The translations under genes and the position numbers were made by a program. A DNA stretch of 64,000 nt, from the NCBI GenBank assembly GCA_965204495.1, contig OZ241989.1, forward strand, positions 1,184,312-1,248,311, written 5' to 3'. Below, one piece after another: positions 1 through 54,084 of this stretch. The notes beneath the pieces are model-generated. The model was not told where the DNA came from. It ran no database searches and worked only from the letters and a program-made list of their open reading frames with translations. Position 1 is the first letter of the stretch. Every line of letters starts with the position of its first letter. Source of the stretch: Candidatus Hopanoidivoransaceae bacterium. Lineage in GTDB: Bacteria > Actinomycetota > Acidimicrobiia > Acidimicrobiales > Hopanoidiivorantaceae.

Positions 1-3000
1 GGCACAACAAAGCTAGTGCTGCCTTGATTAGCGGCGGCGGTCACTTCAAAGCTGCAGCTAGAACCCGTGTGGGTAACAGAAGCAAGCCTGCTGGCGTTGA
101 TGCCGGTGGCGTCGCCGCACGAGATCGTGTAGCTGCCGTCTGTGGCGTAGCTGCTTACATCTACAGTCCTAGCCGTGCTTACGGGGATGACTATGCCCGA
201 AGGCGCGCTGTAGGTGATAGTAGAAGCAGCCCCGATGGTAACAGACACCTGCCCGTCCAATGTGTGCCCGCCTGCGGAGCTATACGGGATCGTGAAGGTG
301 GCAGCGCCCGTCATGCCAGCCACAGGCGTAATGGTGAAGTCGCAGCCATGCCGGACTATGTGCCGGATTATGTGGTCTATGCTGGCGTGAATGCTTCTGG
401 CGTCAGCGCAGGCGATCGTGTAGCTGCCGTCTGCGACATAGCTGGAAGCGTCTATAGTCAAAGTGCGGTTGTGGCCCACCGTCAAAGCGTTCGCCCCCAC
501 GGGAGCGGTGTAGACGATAGTGGAAGCCGGCCCGACCGTGATATCGAAGACTTGGTTCAGCACATGCCCGCCAGCAGAGCGATAAGGCACAGTGAAGGTC
601 GCATGGCCCTGCTGCGACTGCGTCAGAGTGCTGATCGGGTTGATGGTGTAGCCGCAGCCGTTGCCGGCAGAACTCCTCGTCACCGATGTCAGCTTCGTGC
701 TGTCCACGCCGGTAGCGTCTAGGCAAGAAATCGTGTAGTTCCCGTCCCTCACATAATCCGAAGCGTCAATCACACGGGTGCGGTTGATGCCGACCTGCAA
801 GGCGGGATCAGGGGCGGTGAAGACGATGGCAGAAGGCTGGCCTATGGTCACAGAAACTGTGCCCGTGGATGCGGCTCCGCCGTCTGAAGTAAACGGCACT
901 ATGAAAGTGGCCGTTCCCAAGCTGGCTGTGGTGAGGGGCGCAGCGGCGAACACACAGGGCATGTTCGCAGCGTCCGGGCGGGTAACCGATGAGAACCTGG
1001 AATGGATGTTGGTCGCATCGCCGCAAGTCACGGTGTAGCTCCCGTCAGTAGCCGCGCTGGAGAGATCCACGCTCAAAGTCCTGTTCCGCCCCACTGTCAG
1101 ACCAGCAGGAGCAGTGTAAGCAATGGTGCTGTCGGGGCCGATATTCACCGTGAAAGTCCCAGAAGCCGTAGCACCGCCGGTAGAGGTGAATGCCACAGCA
1201 AAAGTAGCGTCGCCCTGCGAGCCCACAGCCAGAGTATCAACAGGATCGACAGTGAAAGAACACCGGCTGCCAACGGAGGATCGGGTGACCGTCATCTTGT
1301 TCGCATCCACCCCCGTAGCATCCGCGCAAGACACCGTATAAGCAGCGTTCTCGCCGCTCACAGCAGCCAGAGCGTCAATCGCCAGCGTGCGGTTGCGGCC
1401 TATCTTCAACCCTGTGGGCGGCGTGAAGGTCAAAGCAGAGTCGGGGCCGATATTGACAGTGATGGTGCGGGTTATGATGTGTCCGCCGGTGGAAGTAAAC
1501 ACCACAGAGAAAGTCGTGGTGCCTTGGTCGGCCGGGGCGAGGGCATCGACGGGGTCTATGGTGTAGGTGCAGGTATTGGCAGTGCGGGTAACCGAGGTCA
1601 GTTTGGTGTTGTCCACGCCTGTGGCGTCAGCGCAGGAAATGGTGTAGCTGCCGTCAGATGCATAGCTGGAAGCGTCAATCTCCAAAGTCAAGTTCCGCCC
1701 TATCCTCAAAGTTCCAGGAGAGCTGTAGCTGATAGTAGAAGCCGCCCCCACCGTGATGGAGATATTGCCGTTGGCCGTGTCGCCGCCGTCTGAAGTGTAG
1801 GGGATGGTGAAGGTGGCTGTGCCCTGCGTGGAAGTAGGCGTGATGGTGTAGCCGCAGCCGTTCCCGCTGGTATCGCGAACCACAGAAGTCAGAGCCACAG
1901 TGCCCGTTGTCGGCACATCGGCTGCGGTGTTGGTGGCTGTGCCGCAAGAGATGGTGTAGCCGCCGTCAGCCGCGTAGTCCAAAGCATCTATGGCCAGGGT
2001 GCGGTTCGTGCCTACTGTCAGACCTGTGGGAGCGTTGAAGACGATGCTGGAGGCTGCGCCCACATCCAAAGTCAAAGTGCTAGTAAGAGTTGCGCCGCCG
2101 GATGAGCTATACGGAATAGAAATGTCGGCGGTCTGCCCAGGGGTGGCCCCGGCGGTTACCGGAATGCGACAGCCGTCCTGGGTGCCCAGGGTGATGTCGG
2201 GATCGCTCTCGGTGATTGCGCCGCAAGAAATCGTGTAGCTGCCGTCTGTGGCGTAAGAACTCACATCTATGGTGCGGGTTCTGCTGGCAGCTATAGCAGG
2301 ATGAGAAGCCGGCGCCATGAAAGTTATTTCAGAGTCGGGGCCGATATTGACCGTGATAGTGCGGGTTATGGTATGACTGCCTGTGGAAGTGAAGGTGATA
2401 GCAAAGGTAGTGTTGCCTTGGTTGGCCGGCGTTAAGGCGTCGACGGGGTCTATCGTGAAGGTGCAGGTATTAGCCGTGCGGGACACAGCCGTCTTGGAAG
2501 TGTCCACTCCAGCGGCATCCGAGCAGGAAATCGTGTAGCTGCTGCCAGATGTCTCTGCTACATAGCCGGAAGCGTCAATCTCCAAAGTCCGGTTCCGCCC
2601 CACTGTCAAAGTTCCAGGGCTGCTATATGTGATAGTGCTGTCGGGGCCGATATTGACAGTGAATGTGCCAGAAGCGGTAGCTCCGCCTGTGGAGGTGAAA
2701 GCCACAGCAAAGGTAGTGTCGCCCTGTGAGCCGGCAGCCAGAGTATCCACAGGATCAACAGTGAAAGAACAGCTGCTGCCAGTATGCGAAACAGTCATCT
2801 TGGTGGCATCCACGCCCGTGGCGTCAGCGCAATTTATAGAATACTCGCTGTTCTCGCCGCTGATGGCCGCCGCAGCGTCAATCACCAGCGTGCGGTTGCG
2901 CCCCAGGGTGAAAGTGCTGGGAGCGGTGAAAGTCACACTGCTGTCGGGGCCGACCTTCACAGAAATCGTCCCAGTAGCTGTGGCACCGCCGCTGGATGTA

Positions 3001-6000
3001 TAAGGCACGGTGAAAGTAGCGTTTGTAGCCTGCAGCGTAGAACTCAGGCTGCTTACCGGCGTAACAGTAAATGAGCAGCTGCTGCGGGTAACCGATGCGA
3101 GCCTGGTGCTGTCTATGCTGGTGGCGTCCCCGCAGGTGATCGTATAGCCGCTGCCGCTGGTCTCGCTCGCATAGCTAGCAGCATCAACCACCAGAGTCTG
3201 GTTGCGGCCCACCAGCAGCCTGCCCGCGCCAGTCGTGGGCGGGGCGTTGAAAGTGATCGCCGAGTTCAGCCCCACATTGACTGTTATCGTCCTGTCTATG
3301 CTGTGGCCGCCGGTGGAAGTGAAAGTCACGACAAAGGTGGCAGTACCTGTTGATGCTGAATTGAGCGGGTCTATGTTATAGGTGCAGGTGTTAGCCGTGC
3401 GACCGACCGAAGAAAGCCTTGAATGGATATTGCGGGCATCGGAGCACGAAATCGTCCAGGTATTGCTGGCTTCCGTTACATAACCCGAAGCGTCAATCTC
3501 CAAAGTCAAGTTCCGGCCTATGAGCAGACTGCCCGCCCCGGTAGCAGGCGGAATGTTAGCGGTGATAGTGGAATCCGGCCCGATGTTGATGGTGTAAGTC
3601 CCAGAAGCGGTGGCTCCGCCTGTGGAGGTGTATGCCACCGTGAAAGTAGTGTCGCCCTGCGAGCCCACAGCCAGAGTATCCACAGGATCAACAGTGAAAG
3701 AGCACCCATCGCCAGAAGAGCTGCGAGTGACCGTCATCCTGTTGGCATCCACGCCGGTAGCGTCAGCGCAAGTCACCGTGTAGGCAGCATTCTCGCCGCT
3801 CACAGCAGCCAGAGCGTCAATCACCAATGTCCGGTTGCGCCCCAGTGTGAAAGTGCTGGGAGCAGTGAAAGTCAAAGCAGAATCAGGGCCGATACTCACC
3901 GTGACGATGCCGTTCCTGCTATGGCCGCCCTCAGAGGTGAAGGGGACAGTGAAAGTAGTGTCGCCTTGGTTGCCCGGCGTCAAAGCATCAACGGGATCAA
4001 TCGTGAAAGTGCAGCTATTGGCCGTGCGAGTAACCGCCATCTTGTTGGCATCCACGCCCGTAGCGTCGCCGCAAGAGATCGTGTAGCTGCCGTCAGATGC
4101 ATAGCTGGAAGCGTCAATCTCCAAAGTCAGATTCCGCCCCACCCGCAGCCTGCCGGCTCCCGTAGTAGGCGGAGCGTTGTAGCTAATAGTAGAAGCCGCT
4201 CCCACTTCTATGGAGATATTCGCGTTCGTGGAGTCGCCGCCGTCCGATGTGAGCGGGACAGTAAAGGTAGCAGTGCCCTGCGTGGATGTAGGCGTAATGG
4301 TGTAGCCGCAGCCGTTCCCGCTGGAGTCGCGCACCACCGAAGCCAAAGCGACGGTGCCCGTGGTGGGCGCATCGGCTGCGGTGTTGGTGGCTGTGCCGCA
4401 GGTGATGGTGTAGCCGCTGTCCGAGGCGTAGTCCAGCACATTGATGGTCTGGGTGCGGTTGGTGCCGACTTTGAGATTCGTTGGGGCTGTGAAAGTGATG
4501 CTGGAGGCTGCGCCCACATCCAGGGTCAAGGTGCCTGTGGTGGTGTGCCCGCCTGACGAGCGATAGGGGATGGAGATGTCGGCGGTCTGCCCAGAGACCG
4601 ACCCGGCGATTATCGGAATGCGGCAGCCGTCTTGGGTGCCCAAAGAGATGTCGGGGTCGCTCTCGGTGATAGTGCCGCAAGAGATCGTGTAGCTGCCGTC
4701 TGTGGCGTAAGAACTCACATCTATAGTGCGGGTTCTGCTGGCAGCCACAGCAGGATTAGAAGCTGGAGCTGCGAAGACGATGGTGCTGTCGGGGCCGACA
4801 TTGACGGTGAGGGTGCGGGTTATTTCGTGTCCGCCGTCAGAAGTAAAAGTAATGGTAAAGGTGGCGTTGCCTTGCTGGGCCGGTGTCAAGGTGGTGATAG
4901 GCGTGATGGTGTAGGAACAGGTGTTGGCAGTGCGAGCAACGGAAGTGAGCTTGGTGCTGTCAATAGCTGTAGCGTCAGAGCAGGTGATGGTGTGGCCGCT
5001 GCCCGATACTTCAGACACATAATCCGAAGCGTCAATAGCCCGAGTGCGGTTCCGCCCCACAGTCAGGGTTCCGGGGCTGTTCCAGGTGATGGTGCTGTCG
5101 GGGCCGATGTTGACGGTGAATGTGCCAGTAGCCGTAGCACCGCCCGATGAAGTGAGAGGCACAGAAAAGGTAGTGTCGCCCTGGTTGGCCGGGGAGAGCG
5201 AATTCACAGGGTCAACGGTGAAGACGCAGCCTGTGCCAGTGGAGGATCGGGTGACCGCCATCTTGCTGGCATCTACTCCAGTGGCGTCGCCGCAAGTGAT
5301 GGTGTTGTTGCTGTCGGCTTCTGTGGCATGGGTCAGAGCGTTTATCTCCAAAGTGCGGTTCCGGCCGACCTTCAGCCCGGTGGGAGCGGTGAAGGTGAGG
5401 GTGCTGTCGGGGCCGATGTTGACGGTCACGACTCCGTTCGCGGTGGCTCTGCCGTCAGAGGAGAACGGAACAGTAAAGGTAGCGTTGCCCTGCAGGGATG
5501 AACTCAGGGTGCTGATCGGGGTGATAGTAAAAGAACAGGTGTTGGCTGTGCGGGAAACAGAAGTCAGCCTCGTGCTGTCAATGCTGGTGGCGTCCCCGCA
5601 GGTGATCGTGTAGCCGCCGTCTGAGGCATAGTCCGAGGCGTTTATGGTCAAAGTCTGGTTCCGCCCGACCGTAAGATCTGTAGGAGCATTGTAGGTTATG
5701 GAGCTGTCGGGGCCGATATTGACAGTGAAAACCCCAGTAGCCGTAGCACCGCCCGATGAAGTAAACGCCACAGAAAAAGTAGTGTCGCCCTGCGAGCCTG
5801 TGGCCAGGGTGTTCTCCGGATCCACCGTGAAGGTGCAGCTGTTAGCCGCGCGGGTAACAGTCATCTTCGTGGCATCCACCCCGGTAGCGTCGCTGCAAGT
5901 AATGGTGTAGCTGCCGTCTGAGGCATAGCTGGAAGCGTCAATCTCCAAAGTCTGGTTCCGCCCCACTTTCAACGCCGACGGCGCGTTGAAGCTAATGGAA

Positions 6001-7895
6001 GAAGCCGCTCCGACCGTCAAAGTCACCGCCCCCGACTCTGAATGGCCGCCCGAAGAGACATAAGGAACAGTGAAACCGCTAGCACCCGCAGTGCCCGTGA
6101 GAGTAATGGTGTAACTGCAGCTCCCGGCAGAAGCCTGCTCTACGGTGCTGATTTCAGTGGTGTCAATGCTGGTAGCGGCCCCGCAGGTAACCGTGTAAGC
6201 CATGTTCTCGGTTATATAGTCCAGCGCATTGATAGTCAGCGTCAGCAAGTTGCTGCCCTGCGTCAGCTGAGGATCGTTAAAGGTGATAGTAGAAGCAGGC
6301 CCCACCGTGATATTGACAACGCCGTCAACGCTGTGGCCGCCTTCGGAGGTGTAAGGCACCGTGAAGCTAGCCGCGCCCTCCACAGCCGTAGGCGTGATAG
6401 TAAACATACAGCCGCTGCGCGACACCGACATGAGCTCAGTAGTGTCAATGCTGGTAGCCTCCCCGCAAGAAATCGCATAGCCGCTGTGAGACTCGCTCAC
6501 ATAATCCGAAGCGTCAATCACACGGGTGCGGTTCGTGCCCAGCTGCAAGCCAGTAGGCCCCTCGTAGGTGATAGTGGAAGGCGGGCCCACCTCAATGCTG
6601 ATAGTGCCGTTCTCCGTGTCGCCGCCGCTGGAAGTGTAAGGCACAACGAAACTGGCAGAACCCTCCGTGCTCGTAGGCGTGATAGTAAACTCGCACCCGC
6701 TGCGCGACACCGACATGATCTCAGTGGTGTCAATACTGGTAGCCTCCCCGCAAGTGATCGTATAGCTAGCATCTGTCTCGGTTACATAGTCCAAGGCATC
6801 GATCACCTGTGTGCGGTTCGTGCCCACCTTCAACCCCGAAGGCGCATTGAAAGTGATGTTGGACGCAGGGATGACTTGAACGGACACGCTCTGGGTAGAA
6901 GTAGCACCCCCAGAAGAGATATAAGGCACCGAAATGGTGGCGGTTCCTGAGGTAGAGCCAGCGGTGATAGGGATGCTGCAGCCGTTCTGAGTGCCTAGGC
7001 TTATCAGAGCAGACGACTCGGTGATTGTCCCGCAAGTAATCGTGTAGGTGCCGTCAGAAGCATAAGCGCCCACATCAAGCGTGAGAGTGCCGCTAGGTAA
7101 GACAGTCGGGGTAGGCGAAGGCGCGTTAAAAACAATTGTAGAAGCCGGGCCCACCTGCAAACCGATGCGGCCGTTCACCGTGCCGCCGCCCGTGGAAGTA
7201 TAGGGCACAGTGAAGCCGGATGCCCCCTGAACATTCTTAGGCGTTACAGTAAACACGCAGCCGTTGCGCGTTACCGTAGAAATCTCAGTGGTGTCAATGC
7301 TGGTAGCGTTCCCGCAAGAAATCCTAAAATGAGAATGAGTCTCACTCGCATAGAGCGCAGCATTGATATCAAGAGTCCGGTTCGTGGCCACCGACAAACC
7401 AGAAGGCGCAGTGAAAGTAAGATTAGGAGCTGGCCTGACATTGATCACCAACCTACCGCTATAGGTACATTGAAATGTGCCCTGATTGCAGATTTGGAGA
7501 CCTGTATAGCTTTCGCGTCCTGCAGTTGCGGTAGCTCTAGCTGTGACTGTGTAAGCACAGCCATTGCGAGAAATAGAAGAAAACTTGCTTGTAGAGCTAA
7601 GTGTAATATTAGGGCAAGCGGGCGTGCCGGTAGAAGTTATGTATCGGTTTAGATCAAAAGTCGCAGATGTCCCTGCTGTGATCCAAAAGTCATTCAGGTT
7701 GGTATTTGATCCACCAGTTCTGTAAAACCATCGAAAGGTTTGAGCTTCTGCCGGGCTGGATGTGGCCACCGAAACGGCGAACAATGATGCTCCGATCAGA
7801 GCCACCGAGACGAGTGCTACGACAATTTTGCGAAGAGCACGAGGGAGCCAGCCGTGCGTCGCACGGGGGGGGGTGGTCTTAGGCAGCGACTTCAT
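1..7895 (-). CDS. Giant secreted/cell-surface repeat protein, N-terminal >2,600 aa (C-terminus lies beyond position 1)
   Basis: Absent from the ORF track, presumably because it has no stop in the window. None of the listed minus-strand ORFs between 1 and 7895 uses this frame. ATG at 7895 has GAGG 8-11 nt upstream. Hand translation gives MKSLPKTTPPRATHGWLPRALRKIVVALVSVALIGASLFAVSVATSSPAEA (signal-peptide-like), then ~100-aa modules of the type VGRNRTL.IDAS.YASDGSYTI.CGDATG.D....C.FT..P....QG.ATF.V.[FY]TS.GG. The plus-strand ORFs listed here are Arg/Gly/Ala-rich antisense shadows. Confidence 0.8.
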   Translation of the reverse strand, partial: MKSLPKTTPPRATHGWLPRALRKIVVALVSVALIGASLFAVSVATSSPAEAQTFRWFYRTGGSNTNLNDFWITAGTSATFDLNRYITSTGTPACPNITLSSTSKFSSISRNGCAYTVTARATATAGRESYTGLQICNQGTFQCTYSGRLVINVRPAPNLTFTAPSGLSVATNRTLDINAALYASETHSHFRISCGNATSIDTTEISTVTRNGCVFTVTPKNVQGASGFTVPYTSTGGGTVNGRIGLQVGPASTIVFNAPSPTPTVLPSGTLTLDVGAYASDGTYTITCGTITESSALISLGTQNGCSIPITAGSTSGTATISVPYISSGGATSTQSVSVQVIPASNITFNAPSGLKVGTNRTQVIDALDYVTETDASYTITCGEATSIDTTEIMSVSRSGCEFTITPTSTEGSASFVVPYTSSGGDTENGTISIEVGPPSTITYEGPTGLQLGTNRTRVIDASDYVSESHSGYAISCGEATSIDTTELMSVSRSGCMFTITPTAVEGAASFTVPYTSEGGHSVDGVVNITVGPASTITFNDPQLTQGSNLLTLTINALDYITENMAYTVTCGAATSIDTTEISTVEQASAGSCSYTITLTGTAGASGFTVPYVSSGGHSESGAVTLTVGAASSISFNAPSALKVGRNQTLEIDASSYASDGSYTITCSDATGVDATKMTVTRAANSCTFTVDPENTLATGSQGDTTFSVAFTSSGGATATGVFTVNIGPDSSITYNAPTDLTVGRNQTLTINASDYASDGGYTITCGDATSIDSTRLTSVSRTANTCSFTITPISTLSSSLQGNATFTVPFSSDGRATANGVVTVNIGPDSTLTFTAPTGLKVGRNRTLEINALTHATEADSNNTITCGDATGVDASKMAVTRSSTGTGCVFTVDPVNSLSPANQGDTTFSVPLTSSGGATATGTFTVNIGPDSTITWNSPGTLTVGRNRTRAIDASDYVSEVSGSGHTITCSDATAIDSTKLTSVARTANTCSYTITPITTLTPAQQGNATFTITFTSDGGHEITRTLTVNVGPDSTIVFAAPASNPAVAASRTRTIDVSSYATDGSYTISCGTITESDPDISLGTQDGCRIPIIAGSVSGQTADISIPYRSSGGHTTTGTLTLDVGAASSITFTAPTNLKVGTNRTQTINVLDYASDSGYTITCGTATNTAADAPTTGTVALASVVRDSSGNGCGYTITPTSTQGTATFTVPLTSDGGDSTNANISIEVGAASTISYNAPPTTGAGRLRVGRNLTLEIDASSYASDGSYTISCGDATGVDANKMAVTRTANSCTFTIDPVDALTPGNQGDTTFTVPFTSEGGHSRNGIVTVSIGPDSALTFTAPSTFTLGRNRTLVIDALAAVSGENAAYTVTCADATGVDANRMTVTRSSSGDGCSFTVDPVDTLAVGSQGDTTFTVAYTSTGGATASGTYTINIGPDSTITANIPPATGAGSLLIGRNLTLEIDASGYVTEASNTWTISCSDARNIHSRLSSVGRTANTCTYNIDPLNSASTGTATFVVTFTSTGGHSIDRTITVNVGLNSAITFNAPPTTGAGRLLVGRNQTLVVDAASYASETSGSGYTITCGDATSIDSTRLASVTRSSCSFTVTPVSSLSSTLQATNATFTVPYTSSGGATATGTISVKVGPDSSVTFTAPSTFTLGRNRTLVIDAAAAISGENSEYSINCADATGVDATKMTVSHTGSSCSFTVDPVDTLAAGSQGDTTFAVAFTSTGGATASGTFTVNIGPDSTITYSSPGTLTVGRNRTLEIDASGYVAETSGSSYTISCSDAAGVDTSKTAVSRTANTCTFTIDPVDALTPANQGNTTFAITFTSTGSHTITRTITVNIGPDSEITFMAPASHPAIAASRTRTIDVSSYATDGSYTISCGAITESDPDITLGTQDGCRIPVTAGATPGQTADISIPYSSSGGATLTSTLTLDVGAASSIVFNAPTGLTVGTNRTLAIDALDYAADGGYTISCGTATNTAADVPTTGTVALTSVVRDTSGNGCGYTITPTSTQGTATFTIPYTSDGGDTANGNISITVGAASTISYSSPGTLRIGRNLTLEIDASSYASDGSYTISCADATGVDNTKLTSVTRTANTCTYTIDPVDALAPADQGTTTFSVVFTSTGGHIITRTITVNIGPDSALTFTPPTGLKIGRNRTLAIDALAAVSGENAAYTVSCADATGVDANKMTVTRSSVGSRCSFTVDPVDTLAVGSQGDATFAVAFTSTGGATASGTFTVNIGPDSTIAYTAPAGLTVGRNRTLSVDLSSAATDGSYTVTCGDATNIHSRFSSVTRPDAANMPCVFAAAPLTTASLGTATFIVPFTSDGGAASTGTVSVTIGQPSAIVFTAPDPALQVGINRTRVIDASDYVRDGNYTISCLDATGVDSTKLTSVTRSSAGNGCGYTINPISTLTQSQQGHATFTVPYRSAGGHVLNQVFDITVGPASTIVYTAPVGANALTVGHNRTLTIDASSYVADGSYTIACADARSIHASIDHIIRHIVRHGCDFTITPVAGMTGAATFTIPYSSAGGHTLDGQVSVTIGAASTITYSAPSGIVIPVSTARTVDVSSYATDGSYTISCGDATGINASRLASVTHTGSSCSFEVTAAANQGSTSFVV
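100..7330 (-). repeat. Tandem ~300-nt coding modules with a ~2.45-kb higher-order repeat
   Basis: The plus-strand motif GTGTAGCTGCCGTC recurs about every 290-310 nt (for example at ~125, 420, 1035, 1640, 2230, 4085, 4685). The stretch 1633-1960 is nearly identical to 4081-4440, and 2225-2300 to 4677-4750 (offset ~2450 nt). Confidence 0.85.
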
Positions 7896-7955
7896 TTTGG
7901 CCTCACGCAGAGAGAGCTGTGCATAGCACGGGGGGGGGTGTCGTAGACGACTTTT
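7861..7955. repeat. Pair of ~30-33-nt G9-containing direct repeats (period 65)
   Basis: 7861-7893 GCACGGGGGGGGGTGGTCTTAGGCAGCGACTTC versus 7926-7955 GCACGGGGGGGGGTGTCGTAGACGACTTT. The first copy encodes codons 2-12 of the giant gene and the second lies in its 5' UTR. Confidence 0.75.
7865..7873 (-). repeat. Homopolymeric C9 tract (coding strand) in codons 8-11 of the giant gene
   Basis: Plus strand reads GCAC-G9-TGG. On the coding strand this is ACC ACC CCC CCC CGT, in frame with ATG 7895. Confidence 0.9.
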
Positions 7956-7984
7956 TCCTATAGGGGTTTAATTTCATATAAGGT

Positions 7985-7993
7985 ATTGTAGCA
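7985..7993 (-). promoter_or_regulatory. Candidate extended -10 (TGCTACAAT) for the giant gene
   Basis: The reverse complement of 7985-7993 is TGCTACAAT, ~90 nt upstream of ATG 7895. The same 9-mer occurs in the CRISPR leader. Confidence 0.4.
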
Positions 7994-8031
7994 AGCAAGT
8001 GGATTATTGCAAGTCATGTGTCTGATTTGGT

Positions 8032-8817
8032 TCATGTGTCTGATTTGGTTGCTTTGATGATTTCCAAGAACGCTTTGCCTTCCAGCAACAGGGCATTGCT
8101 GATTTCTGCGTGTCGCCAAGCCATAGCAGTTCGTTTCACTGCTACGGCAGAGTGCATGTTCTTCTCAGCGATGGCTGTTGCGGCTGCGATGGCATCTTCC
8201 AGAAATGTCTCGGACACTTTGAACACCAGACCCATCTCTCTGGCTTCCTGAGCCCCTACCCATTCGGAGCTCAGCAGCAGCCACATGGCGTTCTGCCATC
8301 CGAGCAGCTGCGGCAGCAGCCAAGTGGATGCCGCCTCCGCCCCCACTCCCAGAGAGGTGAAGGGACATTTGAAGCGCGCCTGAGGCGAAGCGAATGCGAG
8401 GTCGGCGAACCCCAGCATGGTAGTTCCCAGCCCCACGGCTGCCCCGTTCACCGCCATCACCAGCGGTTTAGGGAAGCACTGCAGGGCTTGCAGCAGCTTC
8501 CAAGAATCGCCAGCTTCAGCATTGCCGGTTGCCTCGTCGCTTGCCTCGCTGCCTGCTTTATCGCTTGCCTCGCTGCTTGATGCCTCGTCTGGCAGCCCGC
8601 CCGTCAATGATGCCAGTTCTTTGAGGTCTATCCCCGCGCTGAAAGCTTTGCCCTCTCCTGTCAGCACCACTGCGCCTACGCTGCTGTCCTCGGCGGCGTC
8701 GCCAAGAGCGGCGTTCACCTCGTTGCGCAAGGCGTGATTAAAAGCGTTGCTGGCTTCGGGGCGACAAAATATCAGCACCTTCACCCGCCCTTTGGTCTGT
8801 GTCTTCAGCAAGCTCAT
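8032..8817 (-). CDS. Enoyl-CoA hydratase/isomerase (crotonase) family protein
   Basis: The track ORF is 8032..8835. The internal ATG at 8817 is preferred because AGGAG lies 6 nt upstream. Crotonase-type sequence VKVLIFCRPEASNAFN...VVLTGEGKAFSAGIDLKEL. It contains an acidic Ser/Ala-rich insert. Confidence 0.8.
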   Translation of the reverse strand: MSLLKTQTKGRVKVLIFCRPEASNAFNHALRNEVNAALGDAAEDSSVGAVVLTGEGKAFSAGIDLKELASLTGGLPDEASSSEASDKAGSEASDEATGNAEAGDSWKLLQALQCFPKPLVMAVNGAAVGLGTTMLGFADLAFASPQARFKCPFTSLGVGAEAASTWLLPQLLGWQNAMWLLLSSEWVGAQEAREMGLVFKVSETFLEDAIAAATAIAEKNMHSAVAVKRTAMAWRHAEISNALLLEGKAFLEIIKATKSDT

Positions 8818-8876
8818 GGGTTCTCCTGTCTGCATCGTTTCTGCTGGGATGTGCGCCGCGCACCGTTCTGCCTAAT

Positions 8877-8985: not shown

Positions 8986-9017
8986 AGCACTGCTTCGGGT
9001 GGCTAGTATCGCAAGGA

Positions 9018-39968: not shown

Positions 39969-42363
39969 CTATCGGGGGGCAGTCCGCCCCCCCTTCATTG
40001 AAGCTGAGAAACTACATGATGAGCTTCGGGGAGGCTTATCTATCGGGGGGCAGTCCGCCCCCCCTTCATTGAAGCAGACCGCCTGATTACTTGCATCGTC
40101 ATTCTGAACCCCCTATCGGGGGGCAGTCCGCCCCCCCTTCATTGAAGCTCGCCGTGGTCTGTCGTCTCTACATGGACTGGCACTCTATCGGGGGGCAGTC
40201 CGCCCCCCCTTCATTGAAGCGCTTGACAATATGCGAACGCTGGAGGCGCACATCCTATCGGGGGGCAGTCCGCCCCCCCTTCATTGAAGCCACTCGGTTG
40301 AGAGATGAGACTGGTGCGGAGGCTTTCTATCGGGGGGCAGTCCGCCCCCCCTTCATTGAAGCTCAGCCATACAAACAGCCTAGCAGATAAGTTCCCTCTA
40401 TCGGGGGGCAGTCCGCCCCCCCTTCATTGAAGCCGCATGTCTTGGGCTGGTCGTTGATGACCCTGATTGCTATCGGGGGGCAGTCCGCCCCCCCTTCATT
40501 GAAGCAGGAACACGCCGAGCGCAGTAGCAGCGATGAAGCCCCTATCGGGGGGCAGTCCGCCCCCCCTTCATTGAAGCGAAGAATATGAGATGAGGTCTCT
40601 GCTGGATGGCTCCCTATCGGGGGGCAGTCCGCCCCCCCTTCATTGAAGCCGCTCTTGCGCTGTGCGCATCAGCGAGTTGAGCGTGCTATCGGGGGGCAGT
40701 CCGCCCCCCCTTCATTGAAGCAGCGGCATCTACACCACCAGCCAAGCCAAACCCTGCTATCGGGGGGCAGTCCGCCCCCCCTTCATTGAAGCTAGCTGGC
40801 AGCTATCAGCCTGCCCGCAACCTTCTGCTATCGGGGGGCAGTCCGCCCCCCCTTCATTGAAGCCTGGCAGAGCAAGGAGTTGCCAGACATGCATGCTGCT
40901 ATCGGGGGGCAGTCCGCCCCCCCTTCATTGAAGCGGCAGCGATGGCTGACGGCATCGCCTGCCTCGGCAGCTATCGGGGGGCAGTCCGCCCCCCCTTCAT
41001 TGAAGCTCGTGGATTGCTGATCCTATTGTTGCTAGCACGAGCTATCGGGGGGCAGTCCGCCCCCCCTTCATTGAAGCATTCAGTGTCGGCACAGAAAAAG
41101 TCGCAAGTTCGGCTATCGGGGGGCAGTCCGCCCCCCCTTCATTGAAGCTCTGGTGAAGAAGCCAGCGATACCACCATCTTCAACTATCGGGGGGCAGTCC
41201 GCCCCCCCTTCATTGAAGCCGCAGCGTCTTCTTCACTTGAGCGTCCGATAGGTATCTATCGGGGGGCAGTCCGCCCCCCCTTCATTGAAGCGGCTGGGGA
41301 CACCTCCACAGCGCAACAGCCTCTATCTATCGGGGGGCAGTCCGCCCCCCCTTCATTGAAGCATCAGGACACCTTTGCCATTGCCTCCATCGCCGTCTAT
41401 CGGGGGGCAGTCCGCCCCCCCTTCATTGAAGCAAGACCCTGAGAGTTTTGAATCTGAGAGGTTTTTACTATCGGGGGGCAGTCCGCCCCCCCTTCATTGA
41501 AGCTTATCAGGCAGGCTTCACGGGGCAGCTAGCCCCGTCTATCGGGGGGCAGTCCGCCCCCCCTTCATTGAAGCAGAGTGAAACAAGCTAGTTCCATTTT
41601 GGCACGAAAACTATCGGGGGGCAGTCCGCCCCCCCTTCATTGAAGCGGACTTGTTAAATGCGGATGATGAGCTTGTGGCGGCCTATCGGGGGGCAGTCCG
41701 CCCCCCCTTCATTGAAGCTGGCGGTCTCTCATCCCGCCGCAAGCCATAAACGAACTATCGGGGGGCAGTCCGCCCCCCCTTCATTGAAGTCTGCGCCTTT
41801 GTAGCCTGTGCCTGCCACGACAGACCTATCGGGGGGCAGTCCGCCCCCCCTTCATTGAAGTGATATTGTGTCATTCTCAGTCTCGTGTTTGTGGTGGCTA
41901 TCGGGGGGCAGTCCGCCCCCCCTTCATTGAAGTTCTACCAGTTCTGAGGTTATTTTGGTGACGGCTGACTATCGGGGGGCAGTCCGCCCCCCCTTCATTG
42001 AAGTTTGGCAATACTTTGAGGCTCTGCCCGCTCAGGTGGACTATCGGGGGGCAGTCCGCCCCCCCTTCATTGAAGTGCCTATCTGGGTAGCGTTCGTATG
42101 AGTCACCTGCGCCTATCGGGGGGCAGTCCGCCCCCCCTTCATTGAAGTGCAGTCCACGCGATCACTCCAATAGTGATTCCTATGCTATCGGGGGGCAGTC
42201 CGCCCCCCCTTCATTGAAGTGCTTCACACGCACTAGCAGCCTACGCCCGACTCACCTATCGGGGGGCAGTCCGCCCCCCCTTCATTGAAGTTATTCCATC
42301 TCCACCTGATACAAAAGCCCAGAGCGCCTATCGGGGGGCAGTCCGCCCCCCCTTCATTGAAGC
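39969..42363 (+). CRISPR. CRISPR array: 34 repeats of 36 nt and 33 spacers of 34-37 nt
   Basis: The repeat is CTATCGGGGGGCAGTCCGCCCCCCCTTCATTGAAGC. It contains a 7-bp stem GGGGGGC/GCCCCCC with a 5-nt loop, followed by an 11-nt tail ending ATTGAAGC. I located every repeat start by hand from 39969 to 42328. Repeats 26-33 end in T instead of C. Confidence 0.97.
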
Positions 42364-44411: not shown

Positions 44412-44447
44412 TTTCGGGGGGCGGTCCGCCTACCTTAATTTGAAGCT
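44412..44447 (+). repeat. Degenerate CRISPR repeat (28/36 identical to the array repeat)
   Basis: CTTTCGGGGGGCGGTCCGCCTACCTTAATTTGAAGC versus CTATCGGGGGGCAGTCCGCCCCCCCTTCATTGAAGC. A weaker repeat-like stretch begins 72 nt later (~44484-44523). Confidence 0.75.
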
Positions 44448-44495
44448 GGTTTGGCTGCTACTACCGCAGGGCTACTGGATCTGTTTCTGGGGTAG

Positions 44496-44863: not shown

Positions 44864-44991
44864 GCGGTGATGGTGATGTGTCGCAACCCACCTTGTTTCT
44901 CGAGCGGGCCGCAGGTGCAGTCGGCTACTGGTGCTGCGCGGTGATGGCGATGTGTCGCTACCTACCCTTCGGGGGGGGGGGCGATTTGAAG
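44864..44991 (+). repeat. ~32-nt direct repeat pair (period 74) ending in a G11 tract plus GATTTGAAGT (CRISPR-repeat-like 3' end)
   Basis: GCGGTGATGGTGATGTGTCGCAACCCACCTT at 44864 and GCGGTGATGGCGATGTGTCGCTACCTACCCTT at 44938, followed by C-G11-CGATTTGAAGT. CTTAAATTGAAGC occurs at ~45058-45070. Confidence 0.6.
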
Positions 44992-45090
44992 TGACAAGGC
45001 GGGATTAGTTTGGATTAATTCATTCTAGTTAATTTTGGGAGGGTTCGTCAAGCTTGTCTTAAATTGAAGCCAGATGGTTTGCGCTGAGAA

Positions 45091-45198
45091 GTTGCTATAT
45101 TCTATCAAAATCTGGTGTGGGGCAAATTACAAGTCATCGCCGTTGTCGGCCGAAATAAGATGTTGCTATATTCTATCAAAATTCGGTATGGCGCATAT
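45091..45198 (+). repeat. AT-rich 37-nt direct repeat pair with 71-nt period (two-repeat mini-array-like)
   Basis: GTTGCTATATTCTATCAAAATCTGGTGTGGGGCAAAT at 45091 and GTTGCTATATTCTATCAAAATTCGGTATGGCGCATAT at 45162. They are 32/37 identical and the first 21 nt are perfect. Confidence 0.7.
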
Positions 45199-45222: not shown

Positions 45223-46659
45223 TTAGTGGGCTGTTTCTACGGCATTGGAGATGCCAGTTCGCGGGAACGAAGGGGACCCCGTTTCGAGGGCTCTTTTTCT
45301 TCCTTTTGCTCTAGGTGTTTTAAGCTGTTTCTTGAAAAAAATGTCTGCTAGGTCGCAGTATATGGTTTCTATACTTGAATACATCTCTATCAATTCTCCA
45401 AATTCTTCATCAATTTTCGCGAGTTCTTCCATTTTTGAAATTAGAGACTTAATGCTAGAGCAGATGCTTTGAATAATTTGAAAACACTCTTCCATAAGTT
45501 CTTCATCAGTTGTTGATTGAACTAGGAACACCATGCTGTTATTTCGCATGTTGAGTTTCACAAAGCTGGGCTCATCCAAATCTTCATTTTCAAAGAGATT
45601 GATGTCTTGACAAATATCTGAGAAAGCCAAAGTTTCTATAATAAAATCTACGATGCCACTTAATATTTCAGCAGATTGACAAATAAATGTTCCAGTATTT
45701 TCTAAAGTATCCGACTCATCGAGAAATAAATCGGATCCATTGCCAACATAATTTTCTGTAAACCAAGTTGGGAAGTTGTCTAATCTAGTTTGCAAATTTG
45801 CAATTTGCAAGCAAAAATTGTCATATTCATCTACGCATTCTTCCAATGACTCAAGAACTTGATCAAATTCGCCTTGTGTCGGCCTAATATCGCTCAGACG
45901 AAAGTTTGCTTGATTCCACGAAAATTCAATAGAGAATATTCCCCCAAAATCTTCTATGTTCCAGATTTCAGAGCAGCGTTCCAAAGCTTCTTGAGCATAA
46001 TTCAAGAATTGCGATGAATCAGAAGCGAAGCACATTATTTGTCTTATATCAGACCAAAGAGAACTGAAGTACGCTACTTCTGCCTCACTAAGTTGTGTTT
46101 GCAAAATAGTGAAGTTGTCGCAGACTTTACTAAATTCTGGTGAGCACTCAGATACCACAATATTAGTTTCTATACCATCTGCACAAGTTTTTGTTGTTTC
46201 AATATACTCCAGTAGTGCCTTGTTGACCTCAGATGATAAATCAACAGGCAGAGTTTCTAACTCATCAGACAACTGGGTGATTTGCTGTTGGGTCAGCCAT
46301 TCGGGAGCAGGCGAATTGCGGGCCTCTGGCGAGAGCAGAGATAGCAAAAATTTGATGAGCTGGGTGTCTGGATCATCTGGTGCTGATTCATCTCCTGATA
46401 ATTGGGATGCCCTTTCTGCGAGGATATCTTCTGCTGTAGGTGTCTCGCTAGGAAGTGTCGGAGTGTTAGAAGTCGAAGTTGCTGGGGACGTGGTGGTGCT
46501 TGAAACGGCAGAGGTGCTTGGTTGCGTGGTAGGCGAAGAAGGAGCAGATTGGTTTTCGGTTGCTACAGGCTTGGAGGCATCCGCGCATCCAGCCAAGAGC
46601 AGACAGACTGCCAGCACACCCAAGACAGAACGACTCAGCGATGGAAGGGTGGAAGGCAC
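45223..46659 (-). CDS. Acidic Cys-rich lipoprotein (478 aa), function unknown
   Basis: Lipobox LLLAGC and a Ser/Thr/Pro linker, then repeated E.C-x7-10-C helical-looking segments (ECSPEFSKVC, ERCSEIW, EECVDEYDNFC, EECFQIIQSIC). Markedly AT-rich. Confidence 0.65.
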   Translation of the reverse strand: MPSTLPSLSRSVLGVLAVCLLLAGCADASKPVATENQSAPSSPTTQPSTSAVSSTTTSPATSTSNTPTLPSETPTAEDILAERASQLSGDESAPDDPDTQLIKFLLSLLSPEARNSPAPEWLTQQQITQLSDELETLPVDLSSEVNKALLEYIETTKTCADGIETNIVVSECSPEFSKVCDNFTILQTQLSEAEVAYFSSLWSDIRQIMCFASDSSQFLNYAQEALERCSEIWNIEDFGGIFSIEFSWNQANFRLSDIRPTQGEFDQVLESLEECVDEYDNFCLQIANLQTRLDNFPTWFTENYVGNGSDLFLDESDTLENTGTFICQSAEILSGIVDFIIETLAFSDICQDINLFENEDLDEPSFVKLNMRNNSMVFLVQSTTDEELMEECFQIIQSICSSIKSLISKMEELAKIDEEFGELIEMYSSIETIYCDLADIFFKKQLKTPRAKGRKRALETGSPSFPRTGISNAVETAH

Positions 46660-47362: not shown

Positions 47363-48294
47363 CTAATTGCTATTGGCTGTCCGCCAGATTATTTGGGGTG
47401 GACTGAAGGTGCCATAGCCACCTTGATCTGAGCGCAGTATCTGCGATTGCAGAATTCGGGATATTCCCCATGATGGATAGAAGTGGCTACGATTTTCTGG
47501 TGTTAAGCTGGTGGCTTGTGCGAGGAGGGCAATCACGGTTCCAAATCCTGCGGGGCGAATCCAAAGAGGCCAAGTATATTTTCCCTGTTTCCAACCACCT
47601 GAGCAACCAAGTGTTAAGGTTCTCTTGCCGTCTTGCCTTGAAAATACTGGATGTCTGCTAAACCCTAAAATTGCTAGAGCTTCGGGACCAGGATTTGTGT
47701 ATTTGTCGGTAGTGGATGGGTTGGAGGCTGATAAGGCGTAAACACGGTCGTCAACTATATCCCACATTAATGATTCTTTTTTGCTTTGATATGGCCAAGG
47801 GCCAATAAGACCTTCGGTTATATCGTCTTCAGTTGCGGAAGTAAGAATTTCTTGTGCCATGCTAAGAAATTTTTGTTGGCCTGCTGTGAAGTAGAGATCG
47901 TTTGGTTTGGCTATATTATTGTTGTCATAGCTTCCTTCGGCTATCAATGCTGTGGCAAATTCGCTACCAATTTGTCCAACTGACGACATGAGGTATTCTC
48001 TAACCGTTTCATCAGAGAACTTGGCTTTTTCTTTTTCTGCTTTTGTCCCAAGCTTTGGAGCCAGAGCAGGGCTTTTTGCCCATTTGGGGAAGACTGCCAT
48101 TGCTTGATCTACTATTTTTTCCACTGGGTAAGCCTCGCTGACGATGGCATGGGGGATGACATCGTTTGACCACCAGAGCTTGGGTTGGTCGGGCTCGTCG
48201 GCGAAGAGGACTTGGACACCTAGGGCGGCAAAGAAGCCTAGGGGGTTGGTGCCGTCTAGTCCGGTCAGGTGAATGCCTTCGTATGCTTGGGTCA

Positions 48295-48295
<1 letters not shown>
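47363..48295 (-). CDS. Short Cas8u-family (Csb3/Csx17-like) putative large subunit
   Basis: The ATG at 48295 overlaps the cas3 TGA. The N-terminal LTGLDGTNPLGFFAALGVQVLFADE resembles the PLG..LKALGV..L motif I recall at Csx17/Cas8u N-termini. Last gene of the effector operon. Confidence 0.5.
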
Positions 48296-52777
<4,482 letters not shown>

Positions 52778-52780
52778 GGC

Positions 52781-54013
52781 TTACTCCGCTTCTGGCTTTT
52801 CGGTTTTGGCTGCTTTTCGGCTTTTCGCCAATAGCTCAATCAGCTTCGGGGAGGGTTCTAGCCGTATCTCGGATGTCTCCCAGCCGATGCCAGCCTTTTC
52901 CGCCTCCTCAGCAGCCCGCTTCAGAATGTCGGATGCGACCGATCTGTTGATGTCCACAACAGTGGGGGCTGAGCCATCCCGTGCTACAAGTTCCAAAGTT
53001 TGGGTTTCAGTCGGAATCAGAAGACATCTGGAGCGAAGGTCGTAGTCGTGCTCATATAGATAAGCGGCGGCTGCTACGCCGAGTGCTGCGATGGCGGTCT
53101 GAGCCGCCGCTTCTTTGGCGCGGTCGCGTCCTCCGAAACGAAGCTTCCTCAAGGCTGCTAGCGAAATCACAGTAGTTTGGACTGCCCCTGAGATGGTCAC
53201 GCCGCCCGACAGAGAATCTATAGAGGGTGCGATGTTGCCGTGGTTGATTTCTGAGGGTCTGCCTATGACTTTGGGCTTGCCTTTTTCTTTGGCAGCTTCG
53301 TCTTCGTTGACGGTCCAGACTTGGGCAGGGTCTGCATGCTCGTAGATGAGATCTTCGGCTGACAATTTTTCAATCGCGAGAGGATCCAGCCGGCTGCCTA
53401 CTTTCTTGCCGACCTGCACATCCAAGCCGATGATCTCTGAGACATAGGCTCGCTGGAATTTCGACCCCAACCCGCCCTTCGGCCCTGTGCTGTCCCAAAC
53501 TCCGAACAGCAGGGCTGTGGGCGAATACCGATATAGGGCGGTGGCGTCTCGTGGGGTGGCGTTGGTTATCTGCTGTCCGACATCAGACAGGCGGAACAGA
53601 GTGCCGTCCAGCAGGCTGTCGCGGAAGATGGCATCGGCTATCCTGTGCGGAGCTTCAAGGGCTGTGAGCTTGCCGATTTCGCTCAAGTCTTCCTCGTCGC
53701 TCTTGGCATCTGAAAAATCCACATATGGAACGGGAAACGCTAGATCGCCGTCCAGCCAGCCTTCCAGCAGGGCTTCTTCGGCTCGGTTGGCCTGAGACGC
53801 TACCGAGTCCAACAGCACGGTTTCCACTTCTTTGTCGTTGATTTGGCGCGTCTCCACAGCGTATTTGTGGTCGGCTCGGCCGTCAACGGCGTATGAGGGC
53901 GGAAACACCTTGTCTTCGGTTCCGCCAGCAGGTGCCAGCGACAGACGAGACCGCAAAGCTACGGCACCTCCCGCTGTGGCTTCTGAAAGCTGTTCAAAAG
54001 TGAGTTCGGTCAT
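52781..54013 (-). CDS. csb1: Csb1 (Cas7u, type I-G)
   Basis: The track start 54073 is TTG. ATG 54013 (MTELTFEQL) has AAGGAG 7 nt upstream. LAPAGGTEDKVFPPSYA...VLLDSVASQANRAEEAL matches my memory of Csb1. Confidence 0.8.
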   Translation of the reverse strand: MTELTFEQLSEATAGGAVALRSRLSLAPAGGTEDKVFPPSYAVDGRADHKYAVETRQINDKEVETVLLDSVASQANRAEEALLEGWLDGDLAFPVPYVDFSDAKSDEEDLSEIGKLTALEAPHRIADAIFRDSLLDGTLFRLSDVGQQITNATPRDATALYRYSPTALLFGVWDSTGPKGGLGSKFQRAYVSEIIGLDVQVGKKVGSRLDPLAIEKLSAEDLIYEHADPAQVWTVNEDEAAKEKGKPKVIGRPSEINHGNIAPSIDSLSGGVTISGAVQTTVISLAALRKLRFGGRDRAKEAAAQTAIAALGVAAAAYLYEHDYDLRSRCLLIPTETQTLELVARDGSAPTVVDINRSVASDILKRAAEEAEKAGIGWETSEIRLEPSPKLIELLAKSRKAAKTEKPEAE

Positions 54014-54084
54014 GATTTTCTCCTTGATGGCTTGTCTGTGTTTTGGGTGTTCTGCTGTTGGGTAGGGTGTCAAATCGCAATTGC

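Follow-up and report, generated by a model that had tools for sequence, protein, structure and literature searches.

Why should one of the largest genes of an uncultured actinobacterium open with an uninterrupted run of nine cytosines, and why should a second such run stand in its leader? The question arises from a stretch of 64,000 nucleotides (nt) of contig OZ241989.1, the window of this study, which carries a giant open reading frame (ORF) on its minus strand. An initial annotation had placed one C9 run in codons 8-11 of this ORF and another in the leader, and had proposed a phase-variation switch. Both runs were confirmed by a direct read and by a run scan; in plus-strand view they appear as G9 at 7865-7873 and 7930-7938. 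We read them as slippage-prone homopolymers within a repeated start module that heads a family of giant immunoglobulin (Ig)-repeat genes and would combine a frame switch with a modulator, a model to which we assign a probability of about 0.55. The start module comprises a Shine-Dalgarno sequence, an ATG, about six codons, the poly-C tract and a conserved GTGyGAyGC segment. The elements concerned are:

1..7895, minus strand: giant ORF, ATG at 7895; open for 2631 codons to window base 1, continuing past the window
7865..7873, minus strand: poly-C tract 2, C9, in codons 8-11 of the giant ORF
7930..7938, minus strand: poly-C tract 1, C9, in upstream ORF 1; length strain-variable
7845..7940, minus strand: two copies of the leader module of ~65 nt, whose cores (7845-7875 and 7910-7940) form a 31-nt direct repeat with 84 % identity and a spacing of 65 nt

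Read from 7895, the coding strand is ATG AAG TCG CTG CCT AAG ACC ACC CCC CCC CGT, tract 2 extending from position 2 of codon 8 to position 1 of codon 11. The full order on the minus strand is TTGCAA, a 16-nt spacer, TGCTACAAT, 7 nt, ATGAAATTAAACCCCTATAGGAAAAAGTCGTCTACGACA, C9 (7938-7930) and GTGCTATGCACAGCTCTCTCTGCGTGAGGCCAAA, followed by ATG (7895) AAG TCG CTG CCT AAG ACC A, C9 (7873-7865) and GTGCGACGCACGGCTGG. The duplicated copy described in the initial annotation is real and lies 65 nt upstream, between the -10 box and the Shine-Dalgarno sequence, but it is not a one-off event: it is a unit of an array of one to four modules. The pattern C9-GTGC-NNN-GCAC has exactly two occurrences. In the 64-kb window without its CRISPR repeats, only three G/C runs of at least 8 nt are present, namely tract 1, tract 2 and a G11 at 44971; runs of at least 6 nt are about two-fold depleted against a random model of independent, identically distributed bases. 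About 200 kb of related sequence held one other long G/C run, not counting a G8 near the leader of locus L082. Since long runs are this scarce in the window and 15 other assemblies carry the tracts at the same position, their pairing is unlikely to be due to chance.

The consequences of tract-length changes were computed. With tract 2 at C9 or C12 the full protein is encoded, whereas C8 or C11 leaves 25-26 amino acids (aa) and C7 or C10 leaves 67-68 aa; the earlier claim that a slip of one base truncates the product thus holds (C10, 68 aa; C8, 25 aa). The segment at stake is the following:

7743..7895, minus strand: predicted Sec signal peptide, residues 1-51, with the basic residues R11, R19, R22 and K23, the hydrophobic core IVVALVSVALIGASLFAVSVA and a cleavage site between AEA and Q that is predicted from the sequence pattern

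Between tract 2 and the hydrophobic core there is no in-frame ATG, GTG or TTG, and the homologues P0004 and P0006 open with the same MK(S/P)L(R)KTPP. A start upstream of the tract, as assumed in the initial annotation, agrees with both observations, and tract 2 is predicted to lie within the sole reading frame able to yield the signal peptide. P0004, P0006 and the product of L087 share this signal peptide. Rescue of an out-of-frame tract 2 by a slip in tract 1 was considered and dropped: it is impossible at any length of tract 1, because each of the other two frames meets a TGA between the tracts, one in GTGAGG and one in AATGAAG.

Upstream of the giant ORF, the leader provides its own elements for transcription and translation:

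7985..8012, minus strand: candidate sigma-70-like promoter, with -35 box TTGCAA (8012-8007), a 16-nt spacer and the TG-extended -10 element TGCTACAAT (7993-7985; TACAAT at 7990-7985)
7903..7977, minus strand: upstream ORF 1, 24 codons, MKLNPYRKKSSTTPPPVLCTALSA and stop; ATG at 7977, 7 nt past the -10 box, stop TGA at 7905-7903
7901..7904, minus strand: Shine-Dalgarno sequence GAGG for the giant gene; spacing to the ATG 5 nt (direct read)

A promoter search returned this single promoter-like site against 0.3 expected by chance, and the TGCTAyAAT box together with the next 45 nt is conserved in L082, L087, L095 and L089. In all six leader variants an ATGA(A/G)A follows the -10 box at 7-8 nt, the spacing being the conserved feature. 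ATG 7977 may be a leaderless start from which the upstream ORF is translated. GTGAGGC precedes every module ATG. The length of tract 1 decides where upstream ORF 1 ends. At C9 it stops at the TGA that falls within the Shine-Dalgarno sequence of the giant gene, at C10 or C7 it stops at the TGA of AAATGAAG, which overlaps the main ATG, and at C8 or C11 it is fused in frame to the giant ORF. The fusion, which adds 28 residues, is the state of L087 and L088. The gene calls P0104 and P0117 likewise have a fused form, with an MKLN or MKLK start, then TPPP and then the signal peptide, so that the upstream ATG may be the ancestral start.

The proposed mechanism would begin with transcription from the TG-extended -10 promoter. 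The short upstream ORF would open at or near the 5' end of the transcript (ATG 7977) and be read across tract 1, whose length modulo 3 would set its end: the stop in the Shine-Dalgarno sequence (C9), the TGA overlapping the ATG (C10), or fusion (C8/C11). Translation of the giant ORF from ATG 7895 would then have to cross tract 2, and only lengths of 9, 12 and so on would give signal peptide and protein. Replication slippage, poorly repaired in Actinobacteria, would continuously generate variants. Tract 2 would be the master ON/OFF frame switch, held ON in the sampled populations, and the upstream tract or tracts would modulate the level of translation or the N-terminal isoform.

Is this design peculiar to one genome? 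For the N-terminal 260 aa only six homologues were found. The contigs of homologues and those reached via homologues of the neighbouring hydratase gave 16 further loci for comparison, all of them built alike at the 5' end, with a TG-extended -10 box, ATGA(A/G)A 7-8 nt on, and one to four tandem modules of ~65 nt. The Shine-Dalgarno-led module reads [GTGAGGC - 5 nt - ATG AAr yyG Cyg ... GA - poly-C - (A)GTGyGAyGC...]. The tract is present in every family member with a readable 5' end. These members represent five different giant genes with Ig repeats, one of the window type, one of the L082/L089 type, that of L083 and a pair of paralogues in L084. Among ~40 representatives bearing a signal peptide, ~12 have PP to PPPPP in its N-terminal part. 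A DNA pattern scan of the JGI metagenomes, with the coding sequence of the signal-peptide core as a tract-independent query, yielded only two unrelated chance matches, thus the family is absent from this collection or too diverged in it. A scan of viral contigs for the start module plus poly-C gave no match, and neither did a profile of seven aligned N-termini (alignment A4) against a set of 5.8 billion proteins at E <= 1. The tract lengths in the assembly consensus are listed 5' to 3', the in-gene tract last:

Window: 9/9
L087 and L088: 11/9
L095: 10/9
L094: 10, the contig stopping short of tract 2
L081: 12/9
L082: 10/10/9
L083: 13/12/9
L089: 11/9/10/9
L090, L091 and L093: 10/9/10/9
L092: 9/9/9/9
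L096: 11/9/10/9
L097: 11/10/10/9
L098: 10/10/10/9
L084: C9 in both paralogues, the tract immediately before the signal-peptide ATG

The upstream tracts differ in length between close relatives. Two pairs of loci, L087/L088 and L094/L095, share the gene order of the window, and their flanking genes and leader are 95-99 % identical to it in nucleotide sequence. Between flanks of 97-99 % identity, the window has C9 at the upstream tract, whereas L094/L095 have C10 and L087/L088 have C11. Each of the three possible frames of the upstream ORF is thus found in nature, and a difference in length among near-identical strains demonstrates slippage at the locus. In the four-module relatives (L089-L093, L096-L098) tracts 1-3 range from 9 to 11. 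A five-way alignment of these relatives over 8.9 kb confined the indels of 1-2 nt to poly-C tracts 1 and 3, and among L090-L093 changes in poly-C length are the sole differences across ~3 kb; the four-module contigs are long-read assemblies, which qualifies the conclusion of slippage drawn from them. In the sample ERZ25070167 three haplotypes with different tract lengths coexist.

Long-read contigs at 1x-13x coverage carry many frameshifts, and L092 has 9/9/9/9 where its sister contigs have 10/9/10/9, as would be the case if the runs or their length differences were artefacts of sequencing or assembly. The tracts recur, however, in a complete genome, in short-read scaffolds of the ENA and in Logan assemblies. 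The two short-read sources concur on length (C11 in L087 from ENA and in L088 from Logan; C10 in L095 from ENA and in L094 from Logan), and tract 4 is constant even in noisy contigs. We consider an artefact extremely improbable. Slippage of the RNA polymerase rather than the replication machinery is another way to use such runs: on C9 to C13 it would produce mixed mRNAs with several frames and starts at once, a leaky and non-heritable outcome. Homopolymer runs of at least 9 nt fill the RNA-DNA hybrid and permit realignment. Just 1 nt before tract 1 the leader can form a hairpin of 4 bp (GTCG-TCTA-CGAC), but it is weak and is not conserved in other units. The strain-to-strain differences in length are seen in the DNA itself, and the G-tract of Bifidobacterium breve has been ascribed to replication slippage (PMC9187656). 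Slippage at the level of transcription therefore seems very unlikely to us as the principal explanation.

For the in-gene tract the picture is different, and several observations weigh against the frame-switch model at this point. The initial annotation named a tract length invariant across deep read data and related strains as a finding that would speak against a switch; at the consensus level tract 2 is indeed C9 in 15 of 15 assemblies. These assemblies contained neither a trustworthy OFF allele nor an in-frame C6 or C12 variant. In classical contingency loci, OFF alleles are usual in strain collections. The one candidate is weak: L081 has C9 in the gene, but its downstream segment is 1 nt shorter and needs C10, so that the tract is out of frame; the locus is a long-read contig at 3x, and additional frameshifts break up its giant gene. 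Many tract counts, moreover, come from long-read contigs at 1x-47x, in which homopolymer lengths are error-prone. The diverged orthologues P0003 (L081) and P0082 (70 % identical) are called from MFAVSVA, within the hydrophobic core. Such starts are consistent with a frame break upstream, either an OFF allele or an assembly error, P0082 being an N-terminally truncated gene call. The phase-variation proposal is partly supported: the placement of the tract, the truncation by a one-base slip, the predicted secretion of the giant and the slippage visible at the upstream tract (C9/C10/C11) speak for it, the constancy of the in-gene tract against it.

This constancy is what would be expected if the poly-C were kept for a sequence-specific role, e.g., as C-rich RNA or DNA bound by a factor, or as a poly-proline stretch stalling the ribosome, in dependence on EF-P, within the upstream ORFs and early in the giant ORF, with slippage as a side-effect; selection on the frame alone would then keep the in-gene copy at C9. 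The flanks GAC-Cn-GTGyGAyGC are conserved as DNA whatever the reading frame, PPP occurs in every upstream ORF, and poly-proline is encoded in every frame. The main ORF, on the other hand, has only PP and no PPP, lengths from 9 to 13 are tolerated at the upstream tracts, and no candidate binding factor is known. A structured RNA as the conserved entity was rejected: the fold of the leader is not better than that of shuffled sequences (z = -0.73), the small GUGC-NNN-GCAC hairpin has 0 compensatory pairs in the unit alignment and hence no covariation, and an Rfam search of the leader gave no match at E <= 1 to a known cis-regulatory RNA class. The missing structure and the missing Rfam match also count against a sequence-specific role, which we hold to be rather unlikely.

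Signs of selection on the run itself bear on the opposite view, that the tracts have no function at all. According to it, tandem duplication and gene conversion of the leader multiplied one slippery run, the upstream lengths drift neutrally, the in-gene copy is tolerated, and frameshifted cells are lost. Units are more alike within a locus than between loci, which suggests concerted evolution; the unit number varies from one to four, and upstream tracts vary while the in-gene tract is constant. Yet if the in-gene tract were harmful, one synonymous change would be enough to stabilise it, and none is seen in five diverged gene lineages. Among ~40 tract copies (C9 to C13) not one is interrupted, despite diverged flanks, in a sequence environment where long G/C runs are otherwise nearly absent. 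CCC-CCC at codons 9-10 is the only such pair among the six Pro-Pro pairs of the giant ORF; the other five open with CCG, which breaks a C run. Functionless tracts are in our view unlikely. The segment after the tract, GTGyGAyGCrCGGCTGG, is read in different frames among family members, as RATHGWLPR or as QCDARLARR, with a compensating indel that restores the frame. Past frameshifts have thus been fixed here repeatedly.

In the frame-switch model, the in-gene tract is a plausible ON/OFF switch: a switch is mechanically possible and would fit the uninterrupted run, and it would be held ON in the sampled populations, in which no switching was observed. Several features of contingency loci are found, a pure G/C run of at least 8 nt, a placement that alters the frame by computation, and a predicted surface or secreted product; length polymorphism with conserved flanks is seen at the upstream tracts (9-11), the in-gene tract being C9 in all 15 assemblies.

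How does the locus compare with known systems? Homopolymer contingency loci have mostly been studied in host-adapted pathogens and commensals. In Neisseria, pilC (poly-G) and opa (CTCTT repeats) carry the tract in the signal-peptide coding region and are switched ON or OFF in translation by frameshift. The present genes resemble them in encoding a predicted outer-surface protein, in the position of the tract and in forming a gene family with a common 5' design. They differ in that Neisseria is a Gram-negative, host-restricted pathogen in which ON and OFF alleles are common and which is not known to have tandem upstream start modules or upstream ORFs. The in-gene design matches that of a classical translational contingency locus. 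To our knowledge, no leader has been described that repeats a start module in variable number and carries several tracts, each varying independently. The initial annotation knew of no such design in organisms of this kind; our literature search found no report of homopolymer switching for Acidimicrobiia, but within the Actinobacteria the principle is known (PMC9187656, PMC4746626, PMC11287997).

The closest parallel is an intragenic G-tract that switches pilus genes in Bifidobacterium breve (PMC9187656). The sortase-dependent pilus of strain UCC2003 shares with our locus the actinobacterial background, a coding G/C run that sets the signal peptide apart from the remaining protein, and a frame set by slippage. 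There, the range of lengths in the population was recorded by maximum-depth sequencing and the reference is OFF, whereas the present tract is ON and invariant in assemblies; a single tract contrasts with a tandem array of start modules, and the proteins are unrelated (PMC9187656). Bifidobacterium breve is a gut commensal, the host of the window an uncultured member of the Acidimicrobiales known solely from metagenome assemblies. Cutibacterium (Propionibacterium) acnes and Gardnerella, also Actinobacteria, have almost exclusively G/C tracts, which are length-polymorphic among strains and lie in intergenic regions or at 5' gene ends, among them those of putative adhesin genes (PMC4746626, PMC11287997). 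The variation in C. acnes followed phylogenetic clades and was read as slow accumulation, and the tracts of both genera are scattered over the genome; here a dedicated multi-tract leader belongs to one gene family. The 7C-10C run of glpK in Mycobacterium tuberculosis is a coding C-run with reversible silencing, its high frameshift rate being ascribed to the missing MutS/L; it differs in affecting a metabolic enzyme, in being a single tract away from a signal peptide and in a switching that was demonstrated by experiment (PMC10159617). Frameshifts in mycobacterial runs of 7-9 nt arise at 1e-5 to 1e-2 per colony-forming unit, and repair by NucS leaves frameshifts uncorrected, which supports high slippage in the phylum (PMC10159617).

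The product behind the tracts has the appearance of a surface structure. The giant ORF encodes a series of ~25 Ig-like domains in tandem, each ~100 aa long and marked by a conserved pair of cysteines. An AlphaFold model of the repeat domain is an Ig-like beta-sandwich (predicted local distance difference test score, pLDDT, 94.8), and its best matches in the PDB are modules of the adhesin SraP, Rib domains and PKD domains. The repeat alignment (A3) met no Pfam or NCBIfam model, a match to DUF7077 remaining below threshold. Its profile retrieved 148 cluster representatives from 1.84 billion proteins, including proteins of 7058 and 7821 aa; judged by these searches, the ~100-aa two-cysteine domain is a rare, lineage-restricted family. 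The first domain after the signal peptide stands apart:

7480..7765, minus strand: hypervariable first domain, 66-68 % nucleotide identity to L087, with 93-100 % on either side

From this pattern it appears to be a mosaic or hypervariable tip, as expected of a surface structure under diversifying pressure. With its predicted signal peptide, adhesin-type modelled fold and strain-variable first domain, the product looks like a secreted or surface Ig-repeat giant. The giant genes of the relatives L089-L098 encode 6220-7354 aa and start at ~8031-8035 or ~8989-8990 in their own contigs (7000-7350 aa in the four-module relatives); besides Ig-like repeats they have faint matches to leucine-rich repeats (LRR).

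A bolder version of the model takes the leader as a multi-bit stochastic 'gearbox', in which one to four independently slipping tracts would set the level and the N-terminal form of the protein under the in-gene tract as master switch. We regard this version as doubtful. Its plausible role would be to hedge bets against phages or grazers whose recognition target is the giant protein with its hypervariable first domain, and it would place a contingency system in an uncultured, apparently non-host-associated lineage of the Acidimicrobiales. The logic known from pathogens and commensals stands here before the largest genes that these uncultured bacteria have, and it is iterated in an unusual way, with one to four modules. 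If the tracts switch or tune, cells in natural populations would differ in whether, or in how much of, a costly surface protein is made, with effects on phage-host and grazer interactions. This could help to account for giant genes in strain-variable genome islands, and frameshifted giant genes in metagenome-assembled genomes (MAGs) might be biology rather than error. The three natural alleles C9, C10 and C11, whose sole difference is at the upstream tract, offer a concrete test system.

The upstream neighbour of the giant gene is an enoyl-CoA hydratase (ECH) gene (8032-8835, minus strand). The best genome match of the hydratase is a MAG of uncultured Acidimicrobiales (71 %), and the host of the window is, on this evidence, identified as an Acidimicrobiales-like actinobacterium. 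A WhiB gene at the locus of one relative fits Actinobacteria. An identity as a marine cyanobacterial SwmB-like gene was dropped with the placement of the hydratase neighbour in the Acidimicrobiales. In the nearest species-level genomes (L001, 10846-15367; L002, ~1790 onward) an Lhr-like helicase follows the hydratase and the giant gene is not at that place; they were not usable for the comparison of tracts. In the window (1-8031) and its close relatives the giant gene takes the place of the helicase, sometimes with three small genes in addition. Thus the giant gene sits in a strain-variable island. A perfect 18-nt tandem duplication (ACCAAATCAGACACATGA twice, minus strand) at 8014-8049 spans the last five codons and the stop of the hydratase gene and directly precedes the -35 box of the giant gene; L087 and L095 share it, and it may be a junction of the island.

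Farther along the window, a CRISPR array of 34 repeats (CTATCGGGGGGCAGTCCGCCCCCCCTTCATTGAAGC) with a period of 71-72 nt occupies 39969-42362 on the plus strand, beside a type I-G cas set at ~47363-54073 on the minus strand (Cas3 with HD domain, Cas3-extension, Csb2 and Csb1/Cas7g). The G11 at 44971-44981 (a C11 when read from the minus strand), which outside the CRISPR repeats is the third and last G/C run of at least 8 nt in the window, lies in an AT-rich intergenic region, with a lipoprotein-like gene (45223-46659, minus strand) on one side, a gene for a DUF4143 ATPase on the other and no obvious gene start at its position. Close to it are a degenerate sequence resembling the CRISPR repeat (~44430-44470) and a direct repeat, TTGATAGAATATAGCAAC, spaced by 73 nt (~45090-45180).

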